Shown one piece after another: positions 5,229 to 35,298 of a DNA stretch of 64,000 nt (within the stretch, counting starts at the first letter, position 1; each line of letters begins with the position of its first letter). The position numbers and the translations under genes were made by a program. Under the pieces are notes generated by a model. It made no database searches. It was not told the origin of the DNA and saw only the letters and a program-made list of their open reading frames with translations. This stretch comes from Candidatus Poribacteria bacterium (GTDB lineage Bacteria; Poribacteria; WGA-4E; WGA-3G): assembly GCA_022823085.1 (NCBI GenBank), contig JAJDXV010000087.1, positions 34,054 to 98,053 on the forward strand, read 5' to 3'.

Positions 5229-5393
5229 ACTATGGGGGCTCTGGGTGTCGCCCCATTACGTTTCACGATAGTTTTAGTTAAGTCTAACCGTCTCTGGGTG
5301 ATCACGAAATAAAAGTCTAAAAAACGACATCTCCGCAGTCACATCAGAATTAACCAGAAACCACTGCGGAATGTAATGGAGCAGTGACCAGAT

Positions 5394-6680
5394 TCAATTA
5401 TTAAAAGTACGTTTCCCGCCCTCTATTGACAACAGAAATTTCTCGCCATCATCACCTATTTCAGGCGAACTGCTCTCTTCCGTTTTCTCTTCTAACTTCC
5501 GCTTGAGCACCGGATAGGCATCCACAACCGGTACCTCCTCGAGATCCGTCAAGGTCGGTCTGCGTGCCTCTGCTCTCGTAATCGCTTCAGCGAGCCGTTC
5601 TTTTTTTTGTTCAGCCTGTGCGACGTCCCGCGCCTTGAAGTCCGGTAACACCTTCTCCGCAAACAGTTCCAACGATTCGAGTATGTCTTCATGGCGGTTC
5701 GCACCTGCCTGTTGAATGAAAACGACCTGATCCACGCCAGCCTGTTCCATCACCTCCAAGTGCTCACGCACCTGATCCGGCGTACCGATACCCGCTCTCC
5801 CTTCAGTCGGCTCCTGTGTCGTCTCTCTATACAGCTGCCAAATATCTGTCTGTCCCGGTATCTGTGAGCCGCCGTGATAATAGTGTGCCAACGCGAACCG
5901 GAAGAAACGGAAGCCGTCTAAGCCACGCGCGACGGCAGTCGCCTCATCATTGTGGCAGGAGAACCCCGACACCATGGCGATGTTCGGGTTAACCCGCTGC
6001 GTCAACGGTTCGCATTCCTTCTCAAAAGTCTCGTAATACTCTTCCACCCAAAACTTGGCTTCGCTTGCATCGACAAAGGCGAAAGTCAACGCTCCGAGTC
6101 CATATCTCGCCGCAAAACGGAGGCTATCACGACTCGAACACGCCACCCACGGCGGCGGATGCGGTGTCTGCAACGGTTTCGGTACAACATTCCGCGGCGG
6201 CATCGAAAAATGCTGACCGTCATACCCAGCATAAGGCGACTGTGTCATCATTTTCGCCGTCTCGCGTGTACATTCCGCCCACATCTCGCGTTTGTGCTTC
6301 GGATCAACGTTGAATCCACCGAGTTCTATATGCGAAGCAGACTCGCCCGTTCCCCACTCTACGCGCCCGTTCGATACGAGGTCAAGGGTCGCGATCCGTT
6401 CCGCAACACGTGCAGGATGGTTGTACGCTGGCGGCATCAACACAATCCCATGTCCGAGCCGAATCTGCGTCGTCCGTTGACTACACGCCGCAAGGAATAC
6501 CTCCGGCGCAGAAGAGTGCGAATACTCTTCAAGGAAATGGTGCTCAACCTCCCAGATATAATCGAAACCAAGTTCGTCAGCGAGCTCGACCTGCGCCAAC
6601 GCATCTTGAAAAAGTTGATGTTCCGCGCCTTCACGCCACGGACGCGGAATCTGATGCTCATAAAATAGTCCAAATTTCAT
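5394..6680 (-). CDS. LLM-class (luciferase-like) flavin-dependent oxidoreductase
   Basis: MKFGLFYEHQIPRPW...ELADELGFDYIWEVEHHFLEEYSHSSAPEVFLAA is a typical luciferase-like monooxygenase N-terminus. Confidence 0.8.
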   Translation of the reverse strand: MKFGLFYEHQIPRPWREGAEHQLFQDALAQVELADELGFDYIWEVEHHFLEEYSHSSAPEVFLAACSQRTTQIRLGHGIVLMPPAYNHPARVAERIATLDLVSNGRVEWGTGESASHIELGGFNVDPKHKREMWAECTRETAKMMTQSPYAGYDGQHFSMPPRNVVPKPLQTPHPPPWVACSSRDSLRFAARYGLGALTFAFVDASEAKFWVEEYYETFEKECEPLTQRVNPNIAMVSGFSCHNDEATAVARGLDGFRFFRFALAHYYHGGSQIPGQTDIWQLYRETTQEPTEGRAGIGTPDQVREHLEVMEQAGVDQVVFIQQAGANRHEDILESLELFAEKVLPDFKARDVAQAEQKKERLAEAITRAEARRPTLTDLEEVPVVDAYPVLKRKLEEKTEESSSPEIGDDGEKFLLSIEGGKRTFNN

Positions 6681-6747: not shown

Positions 6748-7521
6748 CTACATTTCGGTACCAAGCGTTTGCATCTCTGCCTCGGTCAACGCCCAATCAA
6801 AGACATCCAAATTCTCCCGCAAATGCGGCACCGAACCCGATTTCGGGATCGTGATGATGTCCTGTTGTATGAGCCAACGGAGAGCGACCTGCGCTGCGGT
6901 CTTCCCGTGATTCTCACCGATCCCACTTAATACGGCATCATTGGCAAGATCCCCAACAGCGAGCGGACGGTGTGCTGTCATCACGATACCGCGGTCATCG
7001 CAGTAGTCGCGCAGTTCTGACCGATTCCTGCGAACGTTATATTCCACCTGATTCGTGCAAATCGGAAGTGCCGATACCTCACACGCCTTCGCAACTTGCA
7101 CCTCGCTAAAATTGCTGATGCCGATACTTCTCACCTGACCGGCATCATGAAGCTTCTGGAAAGCAGAAAACGTCTCCGCGTAGGGGACATCGTCGTTCGG
7201 CCAGTGGATCAACAACAGATCCGCATAATCCATCTGCAAATCGCGCAAACACGTCTCAAATTGCGTAAGCACATCGTCATACTTCAGGTGCGTGTTCCAA
7301 ATCTTGGTCGTCAGAAAGATCTCCTCACGGTCAATACGGATGTCGCGAAGTGCCCTCCCAATCTCGCGCTGATTTTTGTACATCCATGCCGTATCAATAT
7401 GTGTATAACCCAACGCAATGGCTTCCTTGACAATACTTCGACACTGCCTGCCTTCTAACTTCCAAGTTCCCAAACCAAGGATCGGCATTTCGTGTCCTGA
7501 TGCAAGTTTAATATTTTTCAT
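6748..7521 (-). CDS. aldo/keto reductase (2,5-diketo-D-gluconate reductase-like)
   Basis: GLGTWKL, GYTHIDTAWMYKNQREIG and LLLIHWP are AKR signatures. Confidence 0.85.
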   Translation of the reverse strand: MKNIKLASGHEMPILGLGTWKLEGRQCRSIVKEAIALGYTHIDTAWMYKNQREIGRALRDIRIDREEIFLTTKIWNTHLKYDDVLTQFETCLRDLQMDYADLLLIHWPNDDVPYAETFSAFQKLHDAGQVRSIGISNFSEVQVAKACEVSALPICTNQVEYNVRRNRSELRDYCDDRGIVMTAHRPLAVGDLANDAVLSGIGENHGKTAAQVALRWLIQQDIITIPKSGSVPHLRENLDVFDWALTEAEMQTLGTEM

Positions 7522-7578
7522 AATATCACCATGATATGCGATTCCCCAAAAAAAGTCAAGTGCGAAGAAATTCGACCC

Positions 7579-7602
7579 TAGATAAATAGATAAATAGATA
7601 AA
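7579..7602. repeat. tandem 8-mer TAGATAAA x3 followed by a T12 run (7608-7619)
   Basis: Read directly from the sequence. It lies in the AT-rich non-coding stretch 7522-8137. Confidence 0.9.
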
Positions 7603-7637
7603 TTTGCTTTTTTTTTTTTAATATCGTATAATTTAAA

Positions 7638-7673
7638 GTGAGGCATAGCCTTAATGTGAGGCATAGCCTTAAT
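7638..7673. repeat. perfect tandem duplication of the 18-mer GTGAGGCATAGCCTTAAT
   Basis: 7638-7655 is identical to 7656-7673. Confidence 0.95.
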
Positions 7674-8137
7674 TATTTTTAACTTGAAAATTTTAAAAAT
7701 TGAGCTGATGAGTCGAACAATTGTGAGAAATGTCAGTATAATTAAAATTAACGTTGAGTGGCAACCCCTCCCGCTTTGGACCATCCGTAGATGTCCCCGT
7801 TCTTAAAGTCGAGTCGCCCCAAGAAATGAAAAATCCTGAATGTTTGCATGAATTATGAGGTAAAGGTATACCTTATGAAGAAGATATAAACTCAATAAAA
7901 CAGTTTCATGACCAGTTAAAACCATAGAAAATAAAGACCTGGAATTCGTCTGAATCATTACCGGAATTGAATTCCCAGAATCTTTGAAATATTTTGAACA
8001 GTTAAAAGAAGATTTGAATCTGAATAATTTCCATGAAGCCAATGCAAAAGTCAAATTTTGGAAAAGGTTATATCGCCTATCCACTTGGACTGAAAAGTAT
8101 TGTCAAGGATCTGAGCGAACTTGAGGAGGGTGTTCTC

Positions 8138-8437
8138 ATGACAGAGACGCTTGAAACATTAGCAAAAAGGGTAAATCAATTGGAAAAGGTGGTTGCAGAG
8201 ATGACACTGCAACTCTCTGTACTCGTTGATACATCAGAAACTGCGGAGCCAAAGAGGCGAAAAACAACGGATGAACAATATGAGGCACAAACCATTCAGA
8301 AAATGCGTGAACACCTCGGAATTGCCGATATAGAACTCATGCCACTTGAAGAACTTCGCAAGAGTATGGCACGCCATGGCATTCGTGCGGAAGATAACGA
8401 GTTTAGCCGCGCAATTATTGAAGAACGTGAGAAATAG
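8138..8437 (+). CDS. putative antitoxin (VapB-position partner of the PIN toxin)
   Basis: ATG at 8138 follows the GAGGAGG RBS (8123-8129). It encodes a small acidic, helical protein whose stop overlaps the downstream PIN gene start by 11 nt. No recognisable DNA-binding fold was seen by eye. Confidence 0.45.
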   Translation: MTETLETLAKRVNQLEKVVAEMTLQLSVLVDTSETAEPKRRKTTDEQYEAQTIQKMREHLGIADIELMPLEELRKSMARHGIRAEDNEFSRAIIEEREK

Positions 8438-8942
8438 GTGTGTATTATTTTATTTTGATGCCAGCGCGCTTGTCAAGCGATATACTGAAGAGATAGGCAG
8501 TGACAAAATTGATTTCCTGTTTCAGAACGTTCCATCGAATCGTCTGATGTGTTTAGCCATTGGTGTCGCGGAAGTCTTTTCGATTTGTGTAAGAAAAAGA
8601 AATGACGGTCGAATTACGAGACACCACTTTGAGCAGGCTGTCGGCTACTTGGACAATGAAGTTATCAATATCGAATCGAATTTTGAAACGATACCAGCAG
8701 AGAACGGACTGATCTGGAAATCAATAGGTTTGATGGATACCCACTCAATTAACAGTGTTGATGCGATTTTATTGTGTTCAGCATTGGATATTGCAGACGA
8801 CCTCCGAAAGAAAAAGAATGAACTTGTCCTCATCGCATCAGACCAACGTTTGCTCCGAGCTGCTCAGACTGAAGGGTTGTTATGTTTCAATCCCGAAACC
8901 AATTCACAAGAGATGTTGGTGAATTGGATCGCTACCCAGTAG
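8427..8942 (+). CDS. vapC: PIN-domain ribonuclease toxin (VapC-like)
   Basis: The four PIN acidic positions are present: FDASALVK, GVAEVFS, SVDAILLCSA, LIASDQRLLRAA. The in-frame GTG at 8427 overlaps the upstream stop, which is typical TA coupling. Confidence 0.7.
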   Translation: MRNRCVLFYFDASALVKRYTEEIGSDKIDFLFQNVPSNRLMCLAIGVAEVFSICVRKRNDGRITRHHFEQAVGYLDNEVINIESNFETIPAENGLIWKSIGLMDTHSINSVDAILLCSALDIADDLRKKKNELVLIASDQRLLRAAQTEGLLCFNPETNSQEMLVNWIATQ

Positions 8943-9075
8943 ACCAATCGAAAAACGAGTGGGGTCCGACAGTCCGAAATACCTTGCCGTGTAATCCGCA
9001 ATTCAGACAATAAATCGAGCTTACAAAAAACCCTCCTACCCTCAGTCCCAAAATCAAAAAGGGAGGTATAGCAGA

Positions 9076-9687
9076 ATGGCATTTAGCGATTTCAAAAAAG
9101 TCTCTGAAGTCCAAGAAAAATTTAGAATCAAATATACGGCAAACGACTTCTTCGAGGTTGAAGCAGCAAATCTTCCAGAGCAATTTCTTCAAGAATTTAG
9201 ATTTACCAAGCAAAATATCAACGTTTTTTCCTCTGAGGCATCACGTTGTGAAGCGATTATCTTCCCGATTTTAAGGGAGGTCTACAAGGCGTATGCTAAT
9301 AACTATGCCCTCTGGATAAGAGAACCGATCATCTACGATGAGACTTTGAACGGCACCCCCGATTACTTCATCGCTACAAAATCTGAATTGGGAATGACTG
9401 TTGTCGGCACGCCTTTGATAATGCTGGTTGAGGCGAAGAAAAACGACTTTGAGCAGGGTTGGGCTCAATGCCTTGCAGAGATGGTCGCAGCACAAAAAAT
9501 CAACGCCGATCCGGATGTCCCCGTATACGGTATTGTGAGCGATGGCACCTTTTGGCAATTTGGACGACTTGTTGCGGATGCTTTCACCCAAAACCATACG
9601 AACTTCAGCACAGATAATTTGCCAGTCCTTTTTGGGGCGATTAATGCCGTCTTCAAAGAGGTAAATACGGCACCAACTGCACCTTAA
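9076..9687 (+). CDS. stand-alone PD-(D/E)xK nuclease-fold protein (HsdR_N-like domain)
   Basis: GTPDYFIA ... LIMLVEAKKNDFEQGWAQCLAEM ... GIVSDGTFWQFGRL matches the D...E-x-K...Q pattern of type I restriction enzyme R N-terminal-like domains. A GGGAGG RBS lies upstream. Confidence 0.6.
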   Translation: MAFSDFKKVSEVQEKFRIKYTANDFFEVEAANLPEQFLQEFRFTKQNINVFSSEASRCEAIIFPILREVYKAYANNYALWIREPIIYDETLNGTPDYFIATKSELGMTVVGTPLIMLVEAKKNDFEQGWAQCLAEMVAAQKINADPDVPVYGIVSDGTFWQFGRLVADAFTQNHTNFSTDNLPVLFGAINAVFKEVNTAPTAP

Positions 9688-10738
9688 TCGAATCTGTTCC
9701 TTTTTGAACCATCTCGAACCCTGTCAGATAGTCCTCCAACGGCAGCTGATGCGTCACAATATGACGCACATCAATTAAACCGCGGTGAATATAATCAATC
9801 GCCAGCGGATACGCATACGGCCCCAAGTGCGAGCCGTGGATATTCAACTCCTTCGTATCGCCGATGATCGTCCAGTCCACCGTTACAGGTTCCCGCATCA
9901 CGCTGAACTCTACAAATGTGCCAGCCTTCCGGATCATGTGCAGCCCCTGCTCAACCGCCTTCGGATGTCCCGTCGCCTCGATATAGACATCACACCCGTA
10001 GCCTTCCGTCAAATCCAATACCGCTTGGACAGCATCCGTTTCCGATGGGTTGATCGCAATATCAGCACCTAATTTCTTGGCGATCTCTAACCGGTTCGGC
10101 ATCAGATCAACAGCGATAAGCACACCGGGATTTTTCAACTTCGCCGCGCCGATCATGCCGAGACCGAGTGTTCCCGCACCCGCGACCACGACGACATCTC
10201 CGAACTCAATATCGCCGCGTTGCACAGCATGAATCGAGCAGGCGAGCGGTTCAATCATCGCCGCATTCGCTGTCGGAATATCAGAAGGCACCTTGTAAAC
10301 GAGCGAACGCGCCGGAAACTTCATATAGTCCGCCATACCACCGTTGACAACCGGTTGAAACCCGTAGATATTGTGGACTTGACAGAGCCAATACTTCCCC
10401 GTTCGGCAATACCGACACTCCCAACACGGCACAATCTGCTCCGCGATAGCCGTATCGCCGATCTGGAGACCGTATTTCTCGCTTGCACCTTCACCGAGTT
10501 CCACAACCTCGCCGATGAATTCGTGTCCAGCGATAACCGGTGCTTCTACATAAGGTGTGCGGTGTTCGTCACCCCAGAAAAGTGGCGCGCCGGTATAGCA
10601 TTTAATGTCGCTCGCGCAGACACCACAAGCGTTCACTTTAACAACAACTTCACCCGGACCCGCCACAGGCATCGCCACCTCTTCGAGACGGTAATCGAAA
10701 GGTTCACGACACATAATCGCGCGCATCGTTTTTGACAT
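9653..10738 (-). CDS. zinc-dependent alcohol/polyol dehydrogenase (MDR family)
   Basis: CGVCASD, GHEFIGEVVELG, the structural-Zn cysteines CWECRYCRTGKYWLC, and the Rossmann motif VVVAGAGTLG. Confidence 0.85.
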   Translation of the reverse strand: MSKTMRAIMCREPFDYRLEEVAMPVAGPGEVVVKVNACGVCASDIKCYTGAPLFWGDEHRTPYVEAPVIAGHEFIGEVVELGEGASEKYGLQIGDTAIAEQIVPCWECRYCRTGKYWLCQVHNIYGFQPVVNGGMADYMKFPARSLVYKVPSDIPTANAAMIEPLACSIHAVQRGDIEFGDVVVVAGAGTLGLGMIGAAKLKNPGVLIAVDLMPNRLEIAKKLGADIAINPSETDAVQAVLDLTEGYGCDVYIEATGHPKAVEQGLHMIRKAGTFVEFSVMREPVTVDWTIIGDTKELNIHGSHLGPYAYPLAIDYIHRGLIDVRHIVTHQLPLEDYLTGFEMVQKGTDSIKVQLVPYLPL

Positions 10739-10763
10739 CTAAACTTCCTTATTTTTCTTCCTT

Positions 10764-10890
10764 AGGACTTACGCAGGTTGCTCTTTTGTACCATAGGAGA
10801 CCGTTGGTCTCCTGTGCACTGAGAACGTCTCTGTCTTTTTAGAGTTTACCCGCTAACCGAGCGTCATATCGCCCAAATTGCGTAAGTCCT
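10764..10890 (+). repeat. MITE-like TIR element, copy 1 (127 bp, longer internal stem)
   Basis: Bounded by AGGACTTACGCA ... TGCGTAAGTCCT. Internal hairpin is CATAGGAGACC-GTT-GGTCTCCTGTG. Confidence 0.85.
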
Positions 10891-10924
10891 ATTCCTATCA
10901 AAACTTTACGATTCAAGAGATGCC

Positions 10925-11701
10925 TTACGCTGCCTTACGTTGTATCAACCGCCGTCTCGCGCTCGCGCGTGCAAGTCCAGCATCCAATGTAATATGGCGG
11001 TCATCCGTCATACCCAGATTGATCGCATGCGCCGTTTCAAGATCGAAACCCCACGCAATCCATTCCGGTATATACGTTTCCGGAATATTACCGGCAACAA
11101 CGACCTTCATGATACTAACGCCTTTCCCGGCATCGTACGCACGTTGGATATATTCCAGATGTCGGTCAATTGAACCGCCTTCCAACATCCTACCCTCTTT
11201 ATTCGCTGTCGTCAGGATAACTTCCATTTCGGGATGGTCTACCACAGCATCCATGACAGGACCGGTGTAGACATGCGTCGAGCAGCCGATGACGCGGATT
11301 TTGCCAGCCGCTTTCGCCTCGCGGAGCGCATCAAGCGCACCCTCACGCCTAACTAAATCCTCCGACGAAGAGACGGCATGTAACAACATAACATCTATAT
11401 ACCCGGTCTGTAATTCGCGCAGTGCTTTCGTGATACTCGCAGCGGCACCATCATAATCCTTCGCAGGCGTTTTCGTCTGGATGACAACCTCTTCTCTGTC
11501 AATCTGGCGGATAGCCTCTCCGAGATGCGGCTGTGTGCCATACCCTTCGGCAGTATCCCAAAACGTAACCCCTTCTTCAAGAGCCTTCAACATCAATTTG
11601 CTACCAGCTTCATAAGTATTACAAGTATCCTTAAGCCGTCCAGCACCATAGCAGAGCCGAGAAATCTCTAAACCTGTGTTTCCGTACGCTAAATATTCCA
11701 T
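10925..11701 (-). CDS. aldo/keto reductase family oxidoreductase
   Basis: MEYLAYGNTGLEISRLCYGAG..., TFWDTAEGYG. ATG at 11701 is preceded by a GGAGGA RBS. Confidence 0.75.
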   Translation of the reverse strand: MEYLAYGNTGLEISRLCYGAGRLKDTCNTYEAGSKLMLKALEEGVTFWDTAEGYGTQPHLGEAIRQIDREEVVIQTKTPAKDYDGAAASITKALRELQTGYIDVMLLHAVSSSEDLVRREGALDALREAKAAGKIRVIGCSTHVYTGPVMDAVVDHPEMEVILTTANKEGRMLEGGSIDRHLEYIQRAYDAGKGVSIMKVVVAGNIPETYIPEWIAWGFDLETAHAINLGMTDDRHITLDAGLARASARRRLIQRKAA

Positions 11702-12018
11702 GGTGTCCTCCACATCCAAACTTGGAAAAAAATGACAACTATAATCCCACAGATCCGTTCAAAACTCTTATGATATACTTTAACCGAATTCCACCGAAAA
11801 ATGCAATACTTTTCTATACCATATTTTCTCTTGGCAACAAACCAATTTTCGGGTATTATAACACAAATTGCTACCTATCAAGATTTTAGACTTGTAGAAT
11901 TCGTGGTTCACTGAAAAATGTTGACTATTCAAGCATTTTGTAGGGCAGATTTTAGTCTACGGTGAACCTCTATTTCTCGCTGAATGCCGACTGCTGATGG
12001 CTGATCGCTCCAAAAAAT

Positions 12019-13164
12019 ATGAAACTCAGTGGACATACCCTTTTCAACAACGCAGCTATCGAAATTGATCTGCGCGATGACAGCGTAGCGTCAATCCGCG
12101 AATTAACCGCCACCGACAGCAATATACAGATTGCACCCGCACCGATAGACATTCAGGTGAACGGCTTCGCAGGTTTCGATCTCAATACTGAGACCGTTAC
12201 ACCCGATGACGTTTGCGCGATGGTACGGGCACTCTGGCGAGTCGGCACCGGCTTTTTATGTCCGACAATTGTCACCGGTTCTTTCGATAGGATTTTCAAT
12301 TCCTTATCTGCCATCGCAGATGCCTGTAAAATGGACCCGTTGGTCAATTACGCCATACTTGGGATCCATCTCGAAGGTCCCTATATCTCCGCCGAAGACG
12401 GACCGCGAGGCGCGCATCCCTTGGCACACGTCAGGGACCCAGATTGGGACGAATTCCAGCAGTGGCAGGACATTACAGAAGGGAAAATCTCCATCGTAAC
12501 CCTCGCACCCGAGAAAAAGGGAGCCATTCCGTTTATTGAAAAACTGGTGTCGGACGGGATCGTGGTCGCCTTAGGGCATACAAACGCTTCCGCGGACGAC
12601 ATCCAAGCCGCAATTGACGCTGGCGCGAAACTCTCCACACACCTCGGCAACGGCGCACACGCCTTAATCCGCCGTCACCCCAACTACATCTGGGAGCAAC
12701 TCGGTGCTGACGAACTCTGGGCAAGCCTTATCGTGGATGGACACCATCTACCACCTTCTGTCGCCAAATCAATGATACGCGCAAAGACGCTCGACCGATG
12801 CATCCTTGTCAGCGATGCAGTCGCACTGGCGGGCATGAAACCCGGTATCTATGAATTCGCCGAAAGATCCGTGGAATTGACAGAGGATCGCTGCGTCCGC
12901 TTAGTCGGCACAGAATATCTCGCCGGTTCCGCCATCGAATTGGCGCGCGGCATTGAAAACAGCGTCCGATTCGCCGGAATATCCCTCAAAGAATCGGTTT
13001 CGCTCGCCACATTACAACCGATGCGGCTGCTCAACGCGGAACCTCACGTAGAAGCAAAAACAAATTTCATACTCTTTGAATGGGACGCAGCGCACCATAA
13101 AATTGACCTGATAGCGACAATTGTCGGAGATGAACTCGTGTATCATACTGAAACAAAAAAATAA
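12019..13164 (+). CDS. nagA: N-acetylglucosamine-6-phosphate deacetylase
   Basis: IDIQVNGFAGFD, HLEGPYIS, GHTNAS, THLGNG and DGHH are NagA/amidohydrolase metal-site motifs in the correct order. Confidence 0.85.
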   Translation: MKLSGHTLFNNAAIEIDLRDDSVASIRELTATDSNIQIAPAPIDIQVNGFAGFDLNTETVTPDDVCAMVRALWRVGTGFLCPTIVTGSFDRIFNSLSAIADACKMDPLVNYAILGIHLEGPYISAEDGPRGAHPLAHVRDPDWDEFQQWQDITEGKISIVTLAPEKKGAIPFIEKLVSDGIVVALGHTNASADDIQAAIDAGAKLSTHLGNGAHALIRRHPNYIWEQLGADELWASLIVDGHHLPPSVAKSMIRAKTLDRCILVSDAVALAGMKPGIYEFAERSVELTEDRCVRLVGTEYLAGSAIELARGIENSVRFAGISLKESVSLATLQPMRLLNAEPHVEAKTNFILFEWDAAHHKIDLIATIVGDELVYHTETKK

Positions 13165-13186
13165 GATAACATCGGAGGCGTACACG

Positions 13187-13291
13187 GTGGAAAATTATTA
13201 CGGCATTGGAGAAGTATTCGTTAAAGCTACGGATCTCGACGGAAACGAAATCGAGTTCAACGACCTCTACTATCCAGATAACTCTCTTTAA
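13187..13291 (+). pseudogene. 34-codon remnant resembling the C-terminal strand of a VOC/glyoxalase protein
   Basis: VENYYGIGEVFVKATDLDGNEIEFNDLYY resembles the D(P/L)DGN.IEF end of VOC proteins. It is too short to be a functional domain. Confidence 0.25.
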
Positions 13292-13324
13292 AAAAAACCG
13301 CCACTATATTGCGAGGAAACCCAA

Positions 13325-14119
13325 ATGCTAACGCCTGCAGAAATCAACGCCTTTGTTGAAAACGGTTATATCATCCGTAAAAACGCGCTGTCCACAACAG
13401 ACATCGAATCCTACCGAAATGCTATTGATCGGATACTTCACAAGTGCCGTGTTGAAGGTCTACACGCGGATCATCTACGCTACATAGATGGTGAGCGCGA
13501 TGACATCTGGGGTGTTAATAACATCTTTCATCCGAGTATTCGTGAGCGCGCACTTGTGGACGCACTCGCGCACCCACAGATACTCGACGTTATCGAAGCA
13601 CTTCTTGGAAAACGATTAAGGTATCACCTCTGTACCCTGCTGGTCAACGCCGAGCAGAAACCCTACCACATCAGATGGCATCGAGATACCGCAGCAGATG
13701 GAGAAATACCGCTTGAACGTCTCCTGAACGGTTTGAGAAACCACGTCCAGCTCAACGGCGCACTCTACGACGATGAAACCCTCTACATTGTTCCCGGTAG
13801 TCATCGACGCGAACTCACGGACGCTGAACGCAAGGTCCTACAAGAAGCACCGATGGCAGAGATGCCTAACCAACTCGCCGTTAAGTTAAAAGCAGGCGAT
13901 ATTGTCTTTTACAATTCGAGGATAATTCACAAGGGCTACAACCTTACCGGTGCAAAGCGACAGACATTGCACTACGCCGTCCTCGTAGCACCACCGGAAG
14001 GGACACCGCCAAACGATAAAGGCGTAGAGAGTCAAACGTGGCTCAACGAACCTAATTTCCTTGGCAGTCTTCCACCCCGACTCAAGCCGTTATTTGATAA
14101 TTGGCTAAAATACGGATAA
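13325..14119 (+). CDS. phytanoyl-CoA dioxygenase (PhyH) family Fe(II)/2-oxoglutarate oxygenase
   Basis: N-terminal FVENGYIIRKNAL, WHRD (the H.D iron ligands), and distal HKGYN/R. Length is typical of PhyH. Confidence 0.7.
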   Translation: MLTPAEINAFVENGYIIRKNALSTTDIESYRNAIDRILHKCRVEGLHADHLRYIDGERDDIWGVNNIFHPSIRERALVDALAHPQILDVIEALLGKRLRYHLCTLLVNAEQKPYHIRWHRDTAADGEIPLERLLNGLRNHVQLNGALYDDETLYIVPGSHRRELTDAERKVLQEAPMAEMPNQLAVKLKAGDIVFYNSRIIHKGYNLTGAKRQTLHYAVLVAPPEGTPPNDKGVESQTWLNEPNFLGSLPPRLKPLFDNWLKYG

Positions 14120-28493: not shown

Positions 28494-28733
28494 ATGAAAC
28501 AAGCGGACTATACACCCGATAAACTTTCTGCTGAAGCTTCAGAATCTAAATTGCGTGGTAAGGAAGTTGGGATAGCACCTTGTAGCCAAGAAAGGTCTAG
28601 ACCTATACCACGTCCGAATTATACAATAGAAGAACTTTTAGCCAAGGTCCCAGAACCTAAAGTTAAAGTCCGAAAATCCGGCTTTTCGGAAGAAACAGAC
28701 ACCGGTCCGCCGGTGGGCAAGGAGGTTTGGTAA
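28494..28733 (+). CDS. MazE/PemI-like antitoxin with an atypical N-terminus
   Basis: AAGGAG RBS. The C-terminal YTIEELLAKVPEP...ETDTGPPVGKEVW parallels the MazF-binding tail of E. coli MazE (FTLAELVNDITPEN...IDWGEPKDKEVW). I could not recognise the N-terminal AbrB-type swapped-hairpin sequence. Confidence 0.55.
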   Translation: MKQADYTPDKLSAEASESKLRGKEVGIAPCSQERSRPIPRPNYTIEELLAKVPEPKVKVRKSGFSEETDTGPPVGKEVW

Positions 28734-28741
28734 ACTTCAAT

Positions 28742-29116
28742 ATGTATGTTCCACGACACGGTGATATCGTGTGGATTGACTTTGAGCCTCACGCCGGACA
28801 TGAGCAGGCAAAAGAGCGTCCGGCTCTTGTACTCTCTGAAGAAATCTATAATCGTAGATTGTGGTTGGCAATTATGTGTCCAATCACGACCAGCCGGAAA
28901 CCCTACCGTGCAGATCTTGATGTTCCAATCCCACCAGGCGTAGAAATTCAAAGTAAGGACCTCACTAGAATTATTGAGCTTGATGGAGTCATTCAAGCGG
29001 ATCATATCAAAAGCCTTGATTGGTGGGAAAGACGCGCGCGGTACGCGGGGGATATGCCAGATGAAACTGTTGTTCGGGTTTTGCAAATCGTTGCTACCCT
29101 TGTGAAAATTTGGTAG
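28742..29116 (+). CDS. mazF: MazF/PemK family endoribonuclease toxin
   Basis: MYVPRHGDIVWIDFEPHAGHEQAKERPALVLS closely parallels E. coli MazF (YVPDMGDLIWVDFDPTKGSEQAGHRPAVVLS). There is an 8-nt gap after the antitoxin stop. Confidence 0.85.
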   Translation: MYVPRHGDIVWIDFEPHAGHEQAKERPALVLSEEIYNRRLWLAIMCPITTSRKPYRADLDVPIPPGVEIQSKDLTRIIELDGVIQADHIKSLDWWERRARYAGDMPDETVVRVLQIVATLVKIW

Positions 29117-29296
29117 TGTTACAAATATCCTTTTTCGTCTGCAGGATTTATACTATCATCCCAGCCGCAAAGTTAATTTTTTTAGTCTGGTGGATATGGC
29201 ACTTCTATAGAAATACATCGTCACCATACTCGGTAGATCCTTTTCCCTAACTCCACCAGATCCACACGTCATCAAAAACAATCCTAAGGAAATAAT

Positions 29297-31300
29297 ATGC
29301 CGAGCCAACACGAAACAACAATTACAAACGAATTAGTGAACATCCTACGGAACATGCGACATAAATGGGAAGTCGAAACAGCAGTTCATGCGTTCATCAA
29401 AGGTCACAGTGAGCTTGATGCACTTGTGATTGAAAGAGGTAGAGAGCCTATTGGTATAGAAGCCAAATTTGATACTGTCACTAACGCTAAAAACCTCATC
29501 AAACAAGCAGAAACACGGCTTTTCCATGAATTGGAAGCAGAATACTATACCTCCGAGAAAACCCTCAATAACGTCATGGCAATTCTGTACCCTGACCGTT
29601 TTAAAACGATGTCTGGACAAAATATCAATCCACAACTCCGCGAGGCGAACGATCTGCAGTACAAACTCGTCAGTACTCTTGGAGATACTGTCGGACACTT
29701 CCCAAAAGACGGATGGGCAATAGGGACAGTTGCAGACATCGCCAATGCGTTACACGTCGGAGCAATACCCAACTCCCAGTTGGAACAGGCAGCAGAGGAG
29801 ATGGAACTTAGCGTCAATCGGGCAGCCCATCTACTTGAAAATGCTATTACTGAACACCGTGCTATGGGGACGAAAATTGAGGCAATCCTACATCAAGAGG
29901 TCTTCGCTAAAGATGAAACAGATGAAGAGGAAAAACTCAATCTACAAACTCTTCGCATGGCAGCACTGATTATCACCGATGCCTTCGTCTTCCAGAGTTC
30001 GCTCGCTGGCAAAGAAGAAATAGAAATGACCTCCGTCCGTTCACTTCATCAACTCTTGCCTACAATTGACTACGCCGATGTTATAGCGGATTGGAGCACT
30101 ATCCTTAAAGTCAACTACCGTCCAATCTTTGAAGATGCCCGTGAGCTCGTTAAGGCTCTTGCAACAGACGATAGACTGGTTAAACATGTCTTAAAACTTC
30201 TGTGTGCGGCAGCTAAAGATCTCGTTGATACCCGCATCGCGCAAATCCATGAACTCGCAGGTATAGTTTTCCAAAAATTAATCACTGATAGGAAATACGT
30301 CAAGGCGAACTACACGCTGCCGGAAAGTGCAGTGTTGTTATCAACCCTCGTGATGCCTGAACTGCCTAAAGGCAAACTTCCGAAAGTGGCGGATTTTGCT
30401 TGTGGGACTGGAGCACTGCTCAACGGAGTATACCAACGCATACTATCCTTGTACGAACAATCTGGTGGAAACGGCAAAGATATTCATCAGCGAATGTTGG
30501 AGAAGAACATCGGGGGTGTGGACATTATGCCGAATGCGACACACCTCACCGCAGCTGCACTTGCGAGTACGTATGCAGGGGTCAAAATCGGCGGCACGCA
30601 AATCGTAACTGCACCTTACGGCGTAACCGATAATGGGAGTTACACAATCGGCTCATTGGAATTGCTTGACGATATAAAACTATTTGACACAGAGGCTGAG
30701 CAGATAGGCGGTGAGGAAAATACGGTAGTTAAACTCCAACAGACGTTCCCACACGGTGATATGGACATTGTTATACAAAATCCGCCCTTCACAAGACCGG
30801 GATCGGATAGCAATACCGATGTACCAAAATCTACTTTCCAAGGCAGTGATCGACCTAAGGAAGACCAGAAGTTGATGCAGGCTGCATTGAAATCTAAAAA
30901 TACAAGCGTAACTGATGGAACTAACGGTTTTGTTTCTGCTTTCATAGAACTTGCTGACAAAAAACTGAGAGATGGTGGTACAATGGGTTTCATTTTGCCA
31001 CTAACAGTGTTGAGATCTCCCACTACGCAGGAACTACGAGATATGTGGGCAAACGAATACCACAACGTAGTCGTGATAACCATGGCGCAGGCAAAAGCAG
31101 AAGATTGCACATTCTCTGCAGACACGACTATGGCAGAATGTATCGTCGTCGCAACGAAAGGTATAGCTGAAAATACTGGACGCGGGAAGTTTGTCTGTCT
31201 CGCTGATAAACCACATAGTCCACTTGAATCTGTTGAAATAGCAAATCAGATTAACAGAAGCAACAAAATACGAAAACTCGCTGGTGCAACTCGAGTTTAG
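29297..31300 (+). CDS. PD-(D/E)xK nuclease + gamma-class N6-adenine DNA methyltransferase fusion without a target-recognition domain (Type IIB BcgI-A-like layout)
   Basis: Nuclease signature D41...E55-A-K57 (ELDALVIERGREPIGIEAKFD). MTase motif X-like NYTLPESAVLL, motif I DFACGTGALL (nt 30392-30415), and motif IV QNPPF (nt 30779-30790). The post-catalytic block is GGTMGFILPLTVL...TFSADTTMAECIVVATKG, and the protein stops about 50 aa later. Confidence 0.8.
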   Translation: MPSQHETTITNELVNILRNMRHKWEVETAVHAFIKGHSELDALVIERGREPIGIEAKFDTVTNAKNLIKQAETRLFHELEAEYYTSEKTLNNVMAILYPDRFKTMSGQNINPQLREANDLQYKLVSTLGDTVGHFPKDGWAIGTVADIANALHVGAIPNSQLEQAAEEMELSVNRAAHLLENAITEHRAMGTKIEAILHQEVFAKDETDEEEKLNLQTLRMAALIITDAFVFQSSLAGKEEIEMTSVRSLHQLLPTIDYADVIADWSTILKVNYRPIFEDARELVKALATDDRLVKHVLKLLCAAAKDLVDTRIAQIHELAGIVFQKLITDRKYVKANYTLPESAVLLSTLVMPELPKGKLPKVADFACGTGALLNGVYQRILSLYEQSGGNGKDIHQRMLEKNIGGVDIMPNATHLTAAALASTYAGVKIGGTQIVTAPYGVTDNGSYTIGSLELLDDIKLFDTEAEQIGGEENTVVKLQQTFPHGDMDIVIQNPPFTRPGSDSNTDVPKSTFQGSDRPKEDQKLMQAALKSKNTSVTDGTNGFVSAFIELADKKLRDGGTMGFILPLTVLRSPTTQELRDMWANEYHNVVVITMAQAKAEDCTFSADTTMAECIVVATKGIAENTGRGKFVCLADKPHSPLESVEIANQINRSNKIRKLAGATRV

Positions 31301-31407
31301 GGTTGTTTTGCCACTGGGCACACAGCAGCAAACAGCAGATGGGACGCGGCACACTCCGCCGCGAAAATTCAAACAAGGTACAAAGCGATCTGCTTTTTTA
31401 GAGACAT

Positions 31408-31436
31408 TTGACACAGATATTAAAATGTGATACCCT
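31408..31436 (+). promoter_or_regulatory. possible extended -10 promoter TTGACA-N17(TGA)-TACCCT in front of the STAND gene
   Basis: -35 at 31408-31413, a TG at 31428-31429, and -10 at 31431-31436 (T1, A2 and T6 conserved). It is preceded by the stem CGCGGC-ACACTCC-GCCGCG (31345-31363) and a T6 run (31394-31399). Confidence 0.35.
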
Positions 31437-31467
31437 ATTTATATCCTAAATTTTTCGGAGATATATA

Positions 31468-34400
31468 ATGAATCGTGCCACTATTTCCACGGTTAAACCG
31501 GAACACCTTAGCGGACTTAGTCAGGCAGAAGCTGTTCTGTTTTTCAGAGATTTGCTCTGGGCGGAAGCGCGCCGACTAGGTCCAGGCACTTGTAAAATTG
31601 ACGTTCCAAACGAAATCAATGCTCCAGATGGTGGGATTGATGCTACGGTTAATGCAAGTTTATCTGTTCCACAAAGCGAAATAATTGAGCCAGGCAAAAA
31701 TGGTTACCAGATTAAATCGGGTTCTGAATTTAAACCGTGGCAAAAATCACAGATCAGGAAAGAACTCTTCGGTGGGACCAGGACACCGATGACTAAAGAG
31801 AATCTTGGCCCAAGCATTCGTGCTTGCCTTGAGGTCAGTGATACCGACGCTGTGTATGTCTTAGTCTGTACGGAAATCAACCTGAGTCGGTCACGAACGA
31901 ACCAGGCCCGATCTCACATTGAGGAATGCTTGAAACAGTGCGGTTATCAGAATCCCAAAGTCAAGATTTGGAGTCAAGACGATTTGATTAATTTTCTTCA
32001 AGAGTTCCCATTGTTAGAATTGAACCTTAGGGCTTTCCGTGCAGACAATTTCAAAATCCACCGGGATTGGTCTAAGTATCCGGATATGCAAGTTCACTTT
32101 GAGCCCGGAAGACCACAAAGCGAACTCATTGAGAAAATACAGAATGATTTACGGCAAGATGACTATCCGGTTCATGTACGGGTGTGGGGAGAACCCGGCA
32201 TCGGTAAAACAAGATTAGTTTTAGAAGCTACCGCGGAAGAAGATTTATCACCATTAGTTATCTATTGCCGTTCAGCTGTGCAGTTTAAATCCGGTGGTTT
32301 AATGAACGAAATTCGCTTCAATGAAAACCTCTTCGCCGTTGTAGTAATTGACGAATGCGATCCGAGCAGCCGATTTGATATTTGGTATGAACTTCAACAT
32401 TGTAGCCCAAGGATTAAACTAATTACTATCTATAATGACTATGAGGAAAAGTCCGGAGGTATTACTTACTATGATATGCCATCTTTAGAGCCTAAACAGA
32501 TCAGTAACATTATGATTCAAGAGTATAAAATACCTGAGGATCAGGTAGACCGATGGGCAGAACTCTGTGGTGGTTCACCGCGAGTTGCCCATGTCATTGG
32601 TCAGAACTTAGTGAATTATCCAGAAGACGTGCTCAAGATACCCAGTACAGTCGAAGTTGATATCTGGGAACGTTACATTGCTGCAGCTGATCAAGACAGC
32701 GAAAAGACGGAGCACAGGCGAGTGGTGCTTCAACATCTCGCACTTTTTAAACGTTTTGGTTATGAAAGATCTGTTGATTTTGAAGCGCAAAGTATAGCTA
32801 AAAAGGTGGAGATCGCTAATTCAGACATCACTTCGTACAAATTTGAAGAGATCATCTATGAGCTCAGAGAACGTAAAATCCTTCAAGGTGATTCTACGCT
32901 TTACATAACACCAAAGGCATTACATATTAAATTATGGACACAGTGGTGGGAAAGGCATTACAAAGGATTCAACCTTGAGAGATTCACCGAGGACTTAAAC
33001 CCCAAATTGGTTGAGTGGTTCTATGAGATGTTTAAGTATGCCGCTGAATCGGATGCAGCATCCAAAATTGTCAAAACTCTCCTTGGTCCTGATGGACCAT
33101 TTCAGGATGATGAATATCTGAAAACAAGGCTGGGTAGCCGTTTTTTTCTCGCCCTGACTGAAGCGGATCCCGAATCAGCTTTGAGATGCCTGATGCGGAC
33201 GTTAGGGAATTGGGATACAGAGACACTTTTGCAATTCACAAGCGGGCGAAGAGATGTGGTATGGGCTCTTGAAAAAATTGCCGTATGGCGTGATTTGTTT
33301 GTTGATGCCGCAAGGTTACTTCTTGCCCTTGGAGAAGCTGAGAATGAAAACTATTCAAACAATGCTAGTGGCGTATTTGCCAGTCTCTTTTCGCCGGGGC
33401 CCGGCAGAGTAGCACCGACTGAAGTGCCTCCAGCAAAACGGTTACCGGTCTTGGAAGAAGCATTTGAATCCAATTCAAAAGAACGCCGGGCACTTGCATT
33501 AAAAGCCTGCAATGCTGCATTAGAATCAGAACATTTTTCGCGAGGAATAGGGGCGGAATATCAAGGGTTACGCAATCCTCCTAAACTTTGGGAACCTAAA
33601 ACATATGATGAGCTGTGGGATACTTACCGTCAAGTGTGGCAACTTCTATCTGGACAATTACCGCGTTTGCCTCAAGATGAGTGTAAAGAGGCCGTAGAGA
33701 TTCTCTTTGAAAGGGCAGGTGCGCTTGCGAAAATCCCAGATCTAAGTGATATGGTTATAGATACGGTGATAACAATTGTCCACGAAAGGTATGTAAGTCA
33801 AAAGCAGGTCATTGAAACAATAAGCCAAATCTTGTACTATGATGACACCTATGACGACGACTTGCCAGTCGAAATTCGACAACGTTTTGAACAACTTCGA
33901 GATGAATTGGTTGGTTCTGACTTTCATTCCCTAATGCAACGATATGTTGGGATGGACCTGCTTGAAGACCAACTTGAAGCAAACAAAGATGAAAAAAATC
34001 GGGTACAACCTCATCTTGAAAAACTTGCCCGGCAAGCCTTTGAGGATCCAACACTTTTGCAAGCGGAGCTTCCATGGCTTGTAACAACTGAGGCGAAAAA
34101 TGGATACAAGTTTGGGTATGAACTTGGAAAAAGAGATAATCATTTTTCCCTTCTACCAACACTTTTGGATGCTCAACGAAACGCAATTGACAATGCAAGT
34201 GTCTATTTTCTCGGGGGTTATTTCCGAACAATTTTTGAAAACGATTTGGCAGAATGGGAAAAACAACTTGATGTACTGGTTGAAGATACGACACTAAGTG
34301 TAGTGATTTCAGATCTCACACATCGTTCCGGTTTGACAGATCGAGCAGGTTTGCGTCTTCTTAATCTCGCCCAAAGTGGTGTTATCGGTATTAATCACTT

Positions 34401-35298
34401 TGGCATTTTTGTCTACGGTAAAGCAATTGAGAGTCTATCCGAAGCAGTCTTCACAGCGTGGATTGAATTTTTGTTGAGTTTTATGGACAAATCTGCTATG
34501 TCAATTGCATTGATTCTTTACCACCGCTATTATGGTCCTCAGAGATCAAAGTTAGTTTTACCGTGTGATCTGACATTCCAGTTGCTCACGCATCCATTAC
34601 TATTTGAAGAGTCAGAAAAAAAATTGTTTAATCCAATGACTGATTACCATTGGACAGAGATTGGAAAAGTGTTTGTGCAATCCTATCCAGAGAAGAATTT
34701 AGAACTTCTAAAAATAATGCTTGCTCACTTTGGTCAAAAAGGATCAATAGTTGATAATTACTCGAAAACCTGCTCAGTATTGACAGAATTGACAAGACAG
34801 CATCCTATACAGGTTTGGAAGCATGTTAGTGAATATTTAGACGCACGAGATCATTTTTTAAGAACGTTTGCCCTTGAAAAATGGCTGAGGGAAGCAGATA
34901 TCTCTGCAACAGAAAAAGAAAAAGGAGCATTAACACTCATTCCGTCCAGAGAAATCTGGAAATGGATTGATGCTAATGTGAAAGATCGGTCACAATATGT
35001 TGCCCGTAGTCTTGTTCCTAAAACACGCTTAGTAGAAGAATGGCCAACTTCTTTGGCAAGGGAAATTCTTGTACGTTATGGCAAGCGAAAAAAGGTTCGA
35101 CAAGGTCTCATATCAAATTATTCCACAGGTGTATGGGTGGGACCTGAGAGTTTACGCTATGAGAGGAAAAAACAGCAGTTGCTCCATATTAAGAATAGCG
35201 AAGATAACAAGAATGTCCAACTCTGGATTGACGATTTCGTAGAAGTTTTGGACAAAGAGGTTGAACGCGCAAAGGTTGAAGAAGAAAGGGAGTTTTAG
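31468..35298 (+). CDS. Mrr-like nuclease + STAND P-loop NTPase + long helical-repeat C-terminus (Avs/AVAST-like antiviral NTPase architecture)
   Basis: N-terminus FFRDLLWAEARRLG...APDGGIDATV...GYQIKSG matches the Mrr catalytic pattern D-x3-D...Q-x-K (D54, D58, Q81, K83). Walker A is GEPGIGKT (nt 32188-32211) and Walker B is VVVIDECD (nt 32338-32361). A GG.P motif CGGSPRVAHVIG resembles the STAND GxP/GLPL region. About 850 aa of Leu/Glu-rich helical sequence follow. A GGAG RBS lies upstream. Confidence 0.8.
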   Translation: MNRATISTVKPEHLSGLSQAEAVLFFRDLLWAEARRLGPGTCKIDVPNEINAPDGGIDATVNASLSVPQSEIIEPGKNGYQIKSGSEFKPWQKSQIRKELFGGTRTPMTKENLGPSIRACLEVSDTDAVYVLVCTEINLSRSRTNQARSHIEECLKQCGYQNPKVKIWSQDDLINFLQEFPLLELNLRAFRADNFKIHRDWSKYPDMQVHFEPGRPQSELIEKIQNDLRQDDYPVHVRVWGEPGIGKTRLVLEATAEEDLSPLVIYCRSAVQFKSGGLMNEIRFNENLFAVVVIDECDPSSRFDIWYELQHCSPRIKLITIYNDYEEKSGGITYYDMPSLEPKQISNIMIQEYKIPEDQVDRWAELCGGSPRVAHVIGQNLVNYPEDVLKIPSTVEVDIWERYIAAADQDSEKTEHRRVVLQHLALFKRFGYERSVDFEAQSIAKKVEIANSDITSYKFEEIIYELRERKILQGDSTLYITPKALHIKLWTQWWERHYKGFNLERFTEDLNPKLVEWFYEMFKYAAESDAASKIVKTLLGPDGPFQDDEYLKTRLGSRFFLALTEADPESALRCLMRTLGNWDTETLLQFTSGRRDVVWALEKIAVWRDLFVDAARLLLALGEAENENYSNNASGVFASLFSPGPGRVAPTEVPPAKRLPVLEEAFESNSKERRALALKACNAALESEHFSRGIGAEYQGLRNPPKLWEPKTYDELWDTYRQVWQLLSGQLPRLPQDECKEAVEILFERAGALAKIPDLSDMVIDTVITIVHERYVSQKQVIETISQILYYDDTYDDDLPVEIRQRFEQLRDELVGSDFHSLMQRYVGMDLLEDQLEANKDEKNRVQPHLEKLARQAFEDPTLLQAELPWLVTTEAKNGYKFGYELGKRDNHFSLLPTLLDAQRNAIDNASVYFLGGYFRTIFENDLAEWEKQLDVLVEDTTLSVVISDLTHRSGLTDRAGLRLLNLAQSGVIGINHFGIFVYGKAIESLSEAVFTAWIEFLLSFMDKSAMSIALILYHRYYGPQRSKLVLPCDLTFQLLTHPLLFEESEKKLFNPMTDYHWTEIGKVFVQSYPEKNLELLKIMLAHFGQKGSIVDNYSKTCSVLTELTRQHPIQVWKHVSEYLDARDHFLRTFALEKWLREADISATEKEKGALTLIPSREIWKWIDANVKDRSQYVARSLVPKTRLVEEWPTSLAREILVRYGKRKKVRQGLISNYSTGVWVGPESLRYERKKQQLLHIKNSEDNKNVQLWIDDFVEVLDKEVERAKVEEEREF

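Follow-up and report, generated by a model that had tools for sequence, protein, structure and literature searches.

Probably two separable defence genes at a Poribacteria locus: a truncated Type IIG-like gene next to a distant relative of Avs8A

Two adjacent genes, here called A and B, were analyzed in a 64,000 nt stretch of contig JAJDXV010000087.1 from a Candidatus Poribacteria bacterium (referred to as the window). Gene A (open reading frame (ORF) at 29297-31300, 667 amino acids (aa)) and gene B (ORF at 31468-35298, 1276 aa) both lie on the plus strand and are separated by 167 nt, exactly as described in an initial annotation made from the sequence alone. The best explanation of our data is not a new obligate system but a pair of separable defence genes, a dead restriction gene (A) and a stand-alone Avs-type sensor (B), which have travelled jointly in Poribacteria-type genomes. 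We assign a probability of about 0.7 to this explanation. The initial annotation had favored a module in which a nuclease-methyltransferase without a target recognition domain (TRD) is paired with an Avs-like protein, and had added the caveat that A and B may be mere neighbors in a defence island. It is this caveat that fits the evidence best. Both genes have hundreds of homologues or more and are, therefore, not chance ORFs.

Results

Gene A of the window has lost its 3' third

Nearly all of the best 120 matches to A were about 985 aa long and showed 76-88% identity to A. A few members of the family are annotated with a length of about 630-660 aa (P0152, P0176, P0190, P0217). The A protein of the window corresponds to residues 1-659 of the 985 aa homologue P0123 at 88% identity, followed by six divergent residues and the stop codon (IRKL is the last matching sequence, AGATRV the divergent end). 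At the DNA level, window positions 29286-31274 are colinear with positions 6911-8895 of locus L001, which contains a full-length A. The blastn alignment restarts at window position 31362, which corresponds to position 9897 of L001 and lies 21 nt past the stop codon of A in this locus. The DNA matching positions 8896-9896 of L001 is missing from the window, except for a 79 nt relic at 31282-31360 on the plus strand, which is 92% identical to positions 9458-9536 of L022. Translation of window positions 31282-31362 results in WCNSSLGLFCHWAHSSKQQMGRGTLRR. Its first 26 residues correspond to residues 847-872 of P0123, but are not in frame with the A ORF. The adjoining conserved stretch upstream of B (31362-31467, plus strand) is homologous to the A-B spacer of intact pairs as judged by blastn. 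This pattern indicates that two deletions of about 560 nt and 360 nt (about 920 nt in total), one on either side of the out-of-frame relic, removed the C-terminal domain of about 325 aa. The same truncated allele was found in three contigs, which excludes an assembly error.

The initial annotation had noted that A ends soon after the methyltransferase (MTase) core. This is correct for the copy in the window, but not for the family with its homologues of about 985 aa.

The A family is predicted to consist of single-chain Type IIG-like enzymes

The remnant of A (29297-31300, plus strand) comprises an N-terminal PD-(D/E)xK nuclease, a helical linker, and the core of a gamma-class N6-adenine MTase. 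Residues D41, E55, and K57, motif I (DFACGTG), and motif IV (QNPP) were invariant in 41 homologues from three subfamilies, and A was matched by the Pfam family Eco57I (2e-10). Thus, all motifs that had originally been cited for A are present and conserved, and the same applies to those of B (see below). An AlphaFold model of a full-length homologue had a mean pLDDT of 79.7 and a pTM of 0.83. The top match of this model in Foldseek was BpuSI (3s1s, E 5e-20), which aligned over the whole length, followed by CamA and M.BseCI, both over about 660 columns, and then by PglX/BrxX, DrdV, and LlaBIII. In these comparisons, the C-terminal region of the model corresponded to the recognition domains of the matched enzymes. 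At the sequence level, the A profile matched PDB entries only in the motif I region of PglX/BrxX and, with a weak score, DrdV, and NCBIfam gave only sub-threshold matches to MAD2, PglX, and Alw26I. The sequence matches of A to named systems (PglX, MAD2, DrmMI, generic IIG) were confined to the MTase motifs. The 325 aa C-terminal domain of the family (residues 660-960 of P0123) shows a degree of conservation similar to that of the remaining protein, with 73% identity within a subfamily and 43% between subfamilies. Based on the modelled fold, we consider the A family to be single-chain Type IIG-like enzymes with a predicted order of nuclease, helical linker, gamma-class MTase, and C-terminal recognition region and with a predicted restriction-modification (RM) activity. 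The family is centered in the Poribacteria and comprises at least three subfamilies, which are about 43% identical to each other.

The full-length A proteins share this one-chain order, including a PD-(D/E)xK nuclease, a helical connector, a gamma-class N6-adenine MTase, and a C-terminal recognition region, with the single-chain Type IIG/IIL enzymes BpuSI, MmeI, and DrdV. They differ from these enzymes in that sequence similarity is seen only in the MTase motifs, that the C-terminal domain is unusually conserved, and that several paralogues occur at fixed sites per genome. The copy in the window retains the nuclease motif in the MTase chain and the gamma-class motifs I and IV, while the C-terminal TRD, which the full-length members carry in the same chain, has been deleted. 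Two features are unusual for Type IIG restriction enzymes: the strong conservation of the presumed recognition domain, and the presence of several A paralogues per Poribacteria genome at fixed sites that were apparently inherited vertically.

In its truncated form, A resembles the catalytic subunit of BcgI-like Type IIB enzymes, since it has a nuclease and an MTase but no recognition domain. It was this resemblance that had led to the view of A as a BcgI-like subunit with B in place of the specificity partner. We rejected this view for the A family, because the homologues of about 985 aa have a conserved C-terminal domain of their own and a BpuSI-like predicted fold. The layout seen in the window is an artefact of the deletion. 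No S gene accompanies the family, and no Methylase_S gene was found adjoining A in the sampled A loci. Membership of A in BREX, MADS, or DISARM systems was also rejected, since the partner genes of these systems are missing and the similarity does not extend beyond the MTase motifs. Furthermore, A is not an equivalent of Avs8B: PADLOC gave generic MTase-core matches for the full-length homologues P0123 and P0241, and PD-Lambda-4_B was not among the matches listed with E ≤0.01.

We concluded that A in the window is, as judged from the alignments, the remnant of a member of a Type IIG-like family that lacks the C-terminal recognition domain. Since enzymes of the Type IIG class need this domain for binding to their DNA site, the remnant is most likely inert.

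Gene B encodes a distant relative of Avs8A

The N-terminal part of B (residues 1-178, 31468-32001, plus strand) is a predicted Mrr-like PD-(D/E)xK nuclease effector domain with the invariant residues D54, G55, G56, D58, Q81, and K83. In hhalign this head aligned with the N-terminal INAPDGGVD...FQAKK region of Avs8A, and it was modelled as an alpha/beta domain. It is followed by a putative STAND P-loop NTPase with a helical/winged-helix region (residues ~204-395, 32077-32652, plus strand), in which Walker A (GEPGIGKT), Walker B (VIDEC), and the GSPR motif are invariant. This part showed weak matches to the Pfam families AAA_16 and NB-ARC and matched the folds of Avs3 (8dgc) and of plant NRC NB-ARC domains. 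The remaining residues ~396-1276 (32653-35298, plus strand) form an all-alpha solenoid, the presumed ligand sensor, which is helical throughout in the model and gave fold matches to alpha-solenoids. Across 29 homologues of B, D54, D58, Q81, K83, GEPGIGKT, DEC, and GSPR were invariant. A model of residues 1-1200 (pLDDT 75.6) consisted of the alpha/beta head, the P-loop domain, and the all-alpha solenoid. In a fold search of the PDB, terminase-bound Avs3 was the best match to this model, ahead of solenoid proteins and the plant NRC NB-ARC domains.

The PADLOC model PD-Lambda-4_A matched residues 12-1004 of B over model positions 9-1012 of 1283 (E 2e-23, 80 bits). A genuine Avs8A on an Enterobacter plasmid reached 1777 bits over its full length with the same model. 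When the profile of the B family was aligned to the Enterobacter Avs8A by hhalign, a probability of 99.6% was obtained (E 7e-24, 947 columns, 21% identity). Residues 5-1001 of B were paired with residues 2-1012 of Avs8A, so that the alignment spans the Mrr-like head, the NTPase domain, and roughly half of the sensor. The last ~270 residues of B did not align to Avs8A. A PDB sequence search with the B profile returned nothing significant, and NCBIfam gave no match to B. The PADLOC and hhalign results, the model, and the fold match to Avs3 all support the original description of B as an Mrr nuclease/STAND NTPase/helical sensor protein with the domain logic of Avs proteins. From these comparisons, B is intact and is a distant sister of Avs8A/PD-lambda-4A rather than a clear member of this group.

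PD-lambda-4 was described from Escherichia coli ECOR07 (Vassallo et al. 2022) and is now named Avs8 (bioRxiv 10.1101/2025.07.02.662641; bioRxiv 10.64898/2026.01.04.697583). According to the same two preprints, Avs8A alone provides full defence against lambda, Avs8B is dispensable, and Avs8A directly binds the HK97-fold major capsid protein. B resembles Avs8A in its Mrr-like nuclease, in which DGG-D...Q-K aligns, in the P-loop STAND NTPase, in the long helical sensor, and in its length (1276 versus 1283 aa). Like Avs8A, it also occurs mostly without a fixed partner. It differs from Avs8A by the low identity, the low bit score, and the unaligned C-terminal part, and no Avs8B-like gene is found with B. 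Members of the B family come from Poribacteria and from numerous other phyla of bacteria and archaea, but not from Enterobacteria, and a megablast search of the 6 kb locus against complete E. coli genomes gave no match.

The B family comprises at least 1349 clusters at 90% identity, with members in Poribacteria, Brocadia, Nitrospirae, Chloroflexi, Saccharibacteria, Acidobacteria, Aenigmatarchaeota, and Methanophagales. Full-length homologues with 28-37% identity are also encoded on plasmids of Pseudanabaena (NZ_CP112878.1), Haloarcula (NZ_CP100409.1 and NZ_CP010532.1), Haloglomus (NZ_CP101167.1), and Halorubrum (NZ_AP017571.1). The Avs8-like B clade thus crosses the boundary between bacteria and archaea on mobile replicons, as seen from the cyanobacterial and haloarchaeal plasmids. 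Scans of the viral contigs of IMG/VR gave no match to A or to B, and a tblastn search of B against phage records found nothing; hence there was no sign that either gene is phage-borne.

A and B are found together in part of the sampled loci only

We collected 80 loci with relatives of B from a collection that holds one genome per species. A was scored as present when A sequence was found within 1.5 kb upstream of B; a few contigs were too short to tell. Intact, split, or relic copies of A were located upstream of B on the same strand in 14 of the 80 loci. By label, 13 of them belong to the 40 Poribacteria loci and one has no phylum name, whereas the 36 loci from other named phyla contributed none. 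The other 66 loci, including all 36 from the phyla other than Poribacteria, had no A sequence in this range. An intact A followed by B after a gap of 14-122 nt was found in eight loci (L001, L004, L007, L013, L028, L034, L036, L079), and these intact pairs carry a full-length A. In L016 and L022 a frameshifted A is next to an intact B, in L065 A is cut by the end of the contig, and in L002 a gene of 277 aa lies between A and B. Only 3' relics of A remain beside an intact B in L008 and L011. Two other genes that might be taken for relatives of A were rejected. A gene of ~670 aa upstream of B in several loci is the housekeeping gene BatA, and a gene of 986 aa downstream of B in eight loci encodes HsdR.

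The reverse sample was centered on A. A metagenome scan for A returned only five loci, and contigs encoding A were therefore sampled instead. The A-centered sample comprised 13 loci, of which L082 and L083 are near-duplicates. B follows A in two of them (L084, L089), while A occurs without B in the other 11 (L081, L082, L083, L086-L088, L090-L092, L096, L097).

Different combinations of the two genes also occupy the same chromosomal sites. The slot between BatA, which is preceded by genes for MoxR and DUF58 proteins, and a CARDB-like gene of 735 aa contains A and B in L013 and L028, only B in L003, L006, L018, and L074, and only A in L091. The slot downstream of an NTP-transferase gene contains both genes in L034, L036, L079, and L089 and only B in L010, L017, L020, L021, L037, L054, and L073. 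In a neighbor-joining tree of the B proteins, copies linked to A and copies without A were interleaved as sisters, and the B proteins associated with the A1 and the A2 subfamily fell into different subclades.

These results show that either gene is maintained in the absence of its neighbor and that the decay of A next to an intact B has occurred repeatedly. The adjacency that the initial annotation had proposed to look for in other genomes does recur with the same order and orientation, but it is not obligate. Neither from the side of B (14/80) nor from the side of A (2/13) were the two genes regular neighbors in unrelated genomes, as would be the case for an obligate A+B system. Our preferred reading of the pair is that of a facultative cassette that is lineage-specific and located in a hot spot of defence genes.

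Variable genes are located next to members of the A family

In two related loci, the 3' end of A is repeated. Direct repeats that correspond to the last ~110 nt of A lie on both sides of B in L008 (53-165 and 5017-5124), with a further copy at 373-438; a 67 nt stretch of the repeats is 96% identical. L011 has three copies of a 118 nt repeat of the 3' end of A (6115-6232, 7135-7252, and 9754-9871; 83-88% identical), which separate a PIN gene, a DUF433-DUF5615 toxin-antitoxin pair, and B. Over both loci, the direct repeats range from 66 to 118 nt with 83-96% identity. They look like scars of cassette insertion and suggest, for these two related loci, that the 3' flank of A is a hot spot for cassettes. 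No recombinase gene was identified at the repeat loci L008 and L011.

The gene that follows A varies in L002, L086, L087, L092, and L096. In L086, a 268 aa DUF6602 protein (9993-10799), which matched PD_DExK and NucC in PADLOC with E 3e-35, is encoded directly after a stand-alone A1-type gene, whereas L087 and L088 lack it at this site. AbiJ is encoded beside an A-family gene in L096. L092 encodes an AAA_35/AAA_22 ATPase of 534 aa with a weak match to the NERD nuclease (4400-6004), which overlaps the start of the A3-type gene for P0284 at 6001; L096 and L097 have no such ATPase gene at this site. P0284 belongs to the third A subfamily, whose members have 967-970 aa.

B was also found inside Type I RM operons in eight Poribacteria loci (L009, L014, L029, L033, L046, L057, L062, L068; B at about 10001-13780 where the flanks are full). 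The order in these operons is HsdM, a HEC-03B-like AAA_15/21 ATPase, a HEC-03A-like protein of 167 aa, B, HsdS, and HsdR. This nested position confirms B as cargo of defence islands. Abortive-infection genes that are embedded in RM operons or linked to them are known, such as PrrC in the EcoprrI Type I locus. B resembles this case, as it directly follows a Type IIG-like gene in 14 loci and lies between hsdM and hsdS/hsdR in eight. It differs in that a physical or regulatory coupling of RM and B would be hypothetical here, and in that B also occurs with no RM gene nearby in most other phyla.

Genomic surroundings of A and B in the window

In agreement with the initial annotation, A and B lie in an AT-richer block together with a mazEF-like pair. 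The G+C content is 0.42-0.45 in this block at ~28-36 kb and 0.48-0.50 in the flanks. A PemK/MazF-type toxin gene (28727-29116, plus strand) matched the Pfam family PF02452 PemK_toxin with E 7e-25. Its start is overlapped by an ORF of 79 aa (28494-28733, plus strand), a presumed antitoxin gene as judged from its position only, for which no match was found in Pfam or PADLOC and which is not part of A/B. The block is flanked by housekeeping genes. Genes for a pyridoxal phosphate-dependent enzyme, Ogt, a glyoxalase, a Zn peptidase, and an amidohydrolase are located upstream, and a gene for a SPOR-domain protein is located downstream on the opposite strand. A tRNA search found none close to the island.

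A promoter had been proposed at 31408-31436 between the two genes, but this was not substantiated. In the A-B region, 18 promoter-like sites were detected in a scan for promoters and terminators compared to 15.4 ± 4.3 in shuffled sequence, and the nearest site was at 31397-31426 with a match of 9/12.

Discussion

We conclude that A and B are most probably two separable defence genes, of which only B is likely to function at this locus. For the action of B we propose a mechanism that is based on its homology to Avs8A, on the published work on Avs8, and on the work on Avs3 and Avs4 reported by Gao et al. 2022. The helical solenoid of B would bind a conserved phage protein, by analogy with Avs8A, Avs3, and Avs4. 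Binding would induce an NTP-dependent oligomerization of the STAND module, which would gather the Mrr-like heads and allow DNA cleavage. The resulting degradation of DNA would abort the infection. B would act alone, with no need for A. A capsid protein is only one possibility for the trigger, since the identity to Avs8A is just 21% and the C-terminal ~270 residues differ.

Some observations weigh against two separable genes. The order of A and B, their strand, and the gap of 14-122 nt are constant in at least five unrelated chromosomal contexts, and this holds for two A subfamilies that are only ~43% identical. This implies that the pair has long been inherited or relocated as one unit and exceeds what random neighbors would show. 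The loci stem mostly from one phylum and are not phylogenetically independent. Moreover, the identity of B to Avs8A is low, its PADLOC score is 80 versus 1777 bits, and a large C-terminal part is unaligned, so that both the trigger of B and its stand-alone action are extrapolated.

The constant arrangement could reflect a genuine two-gene system of Poribacteria in which A and B co-operate and of which the window holds a degenerate version with only B surviving. Restriction by the Type IIG enzyme could be the first line of defence and Avs-type suicide the second, both encoded by one operon. Alternatively, B could be kept latent by the RM enzyme in the way that EcoprrI restrains PrrC. The different subclades of the B proteins that are associated with A1 and A2 are consistent with this, and so is the location of B in Type I RM operons at eight more loci, by which an association with RM genes recurs. 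We nevertheless regard co-operation as rather unlikely, since the same sites are found with B alone or with A alone, A has repeatedly undergone decay next to an intact B, none of the B loci from outside the Poribacteria has A, and most A loci lack B. Furthermore, Avs8A is autonomous, and unrelated cargo is also found at the flank of A. A historical version, in which an ancient co-transcribed A-B cassette of Poribacteria was relocated as a unit to at least five sites, with the two genes co-operating by restriction plus suicide or by restraint of the sensor by the RM enzyme, and in which the frequent loss of A represents decay to a B-only system, is in our view unlikely. It is quite improbable that the adjacency reflects nothing but a preference for an insertion site, with the 3' end of A as a hot spot for recombination or integration and B as one of many cassettes, although this would refine the preferred explanation mechanistically. 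The repeats around B in L008 and between the cassettes in L011 and the variable genes after A argue for such a role of the 3' end, but the repeats are restricted to two related loci without an identified recombinase gene, and most A-B loci have no second repeat copy.

The idea that the 667 aa protein is a functional TRD-less nuclease-MTase, with its targeting supplied by B or another protein, is very improbable. Its ORF is uninterrupted, every nuclease and MTase motif is kept, and the four homologues annotated with ~630-660 aa have a similar length. However, the ORF ends at a deletion junction that is followed by the out-of-frame relic of the lost domain, nearly all homologues retain the conserved C-terminal domain, A is of full length in the intact pairs, and an S-like gene next to A is missing from all sampled A loci. 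The original idea of a TRD-less nuclease-MTase working with an Avs protein rests on a truncated pseudogene and is not worth pursuing as a new system.

With two separable genes as the preferred explanation, interest shifts to other aspects of the locus. B belongs to a large uncharacterized sister clade of Avs8, with proteins of ~1270 aa at ~60% identity that occur in bacteria, archaea, and on cyanobacterial and haloarchaeal plasmids and whose phage trigger is testable. The defence hot spots of Poribacteria by conserved Type IIG-like genes, with their A+B, B-only, and A-only states, provide a natural series for asking whether the linkage of RM and Avs genes benefits them. Elsewhere in the window, a second stretch of low G+C content (7000-10000; 0.417-0.444 compared to ~0.50 around it) coincides with a reversal of the GC skew and may be another island.

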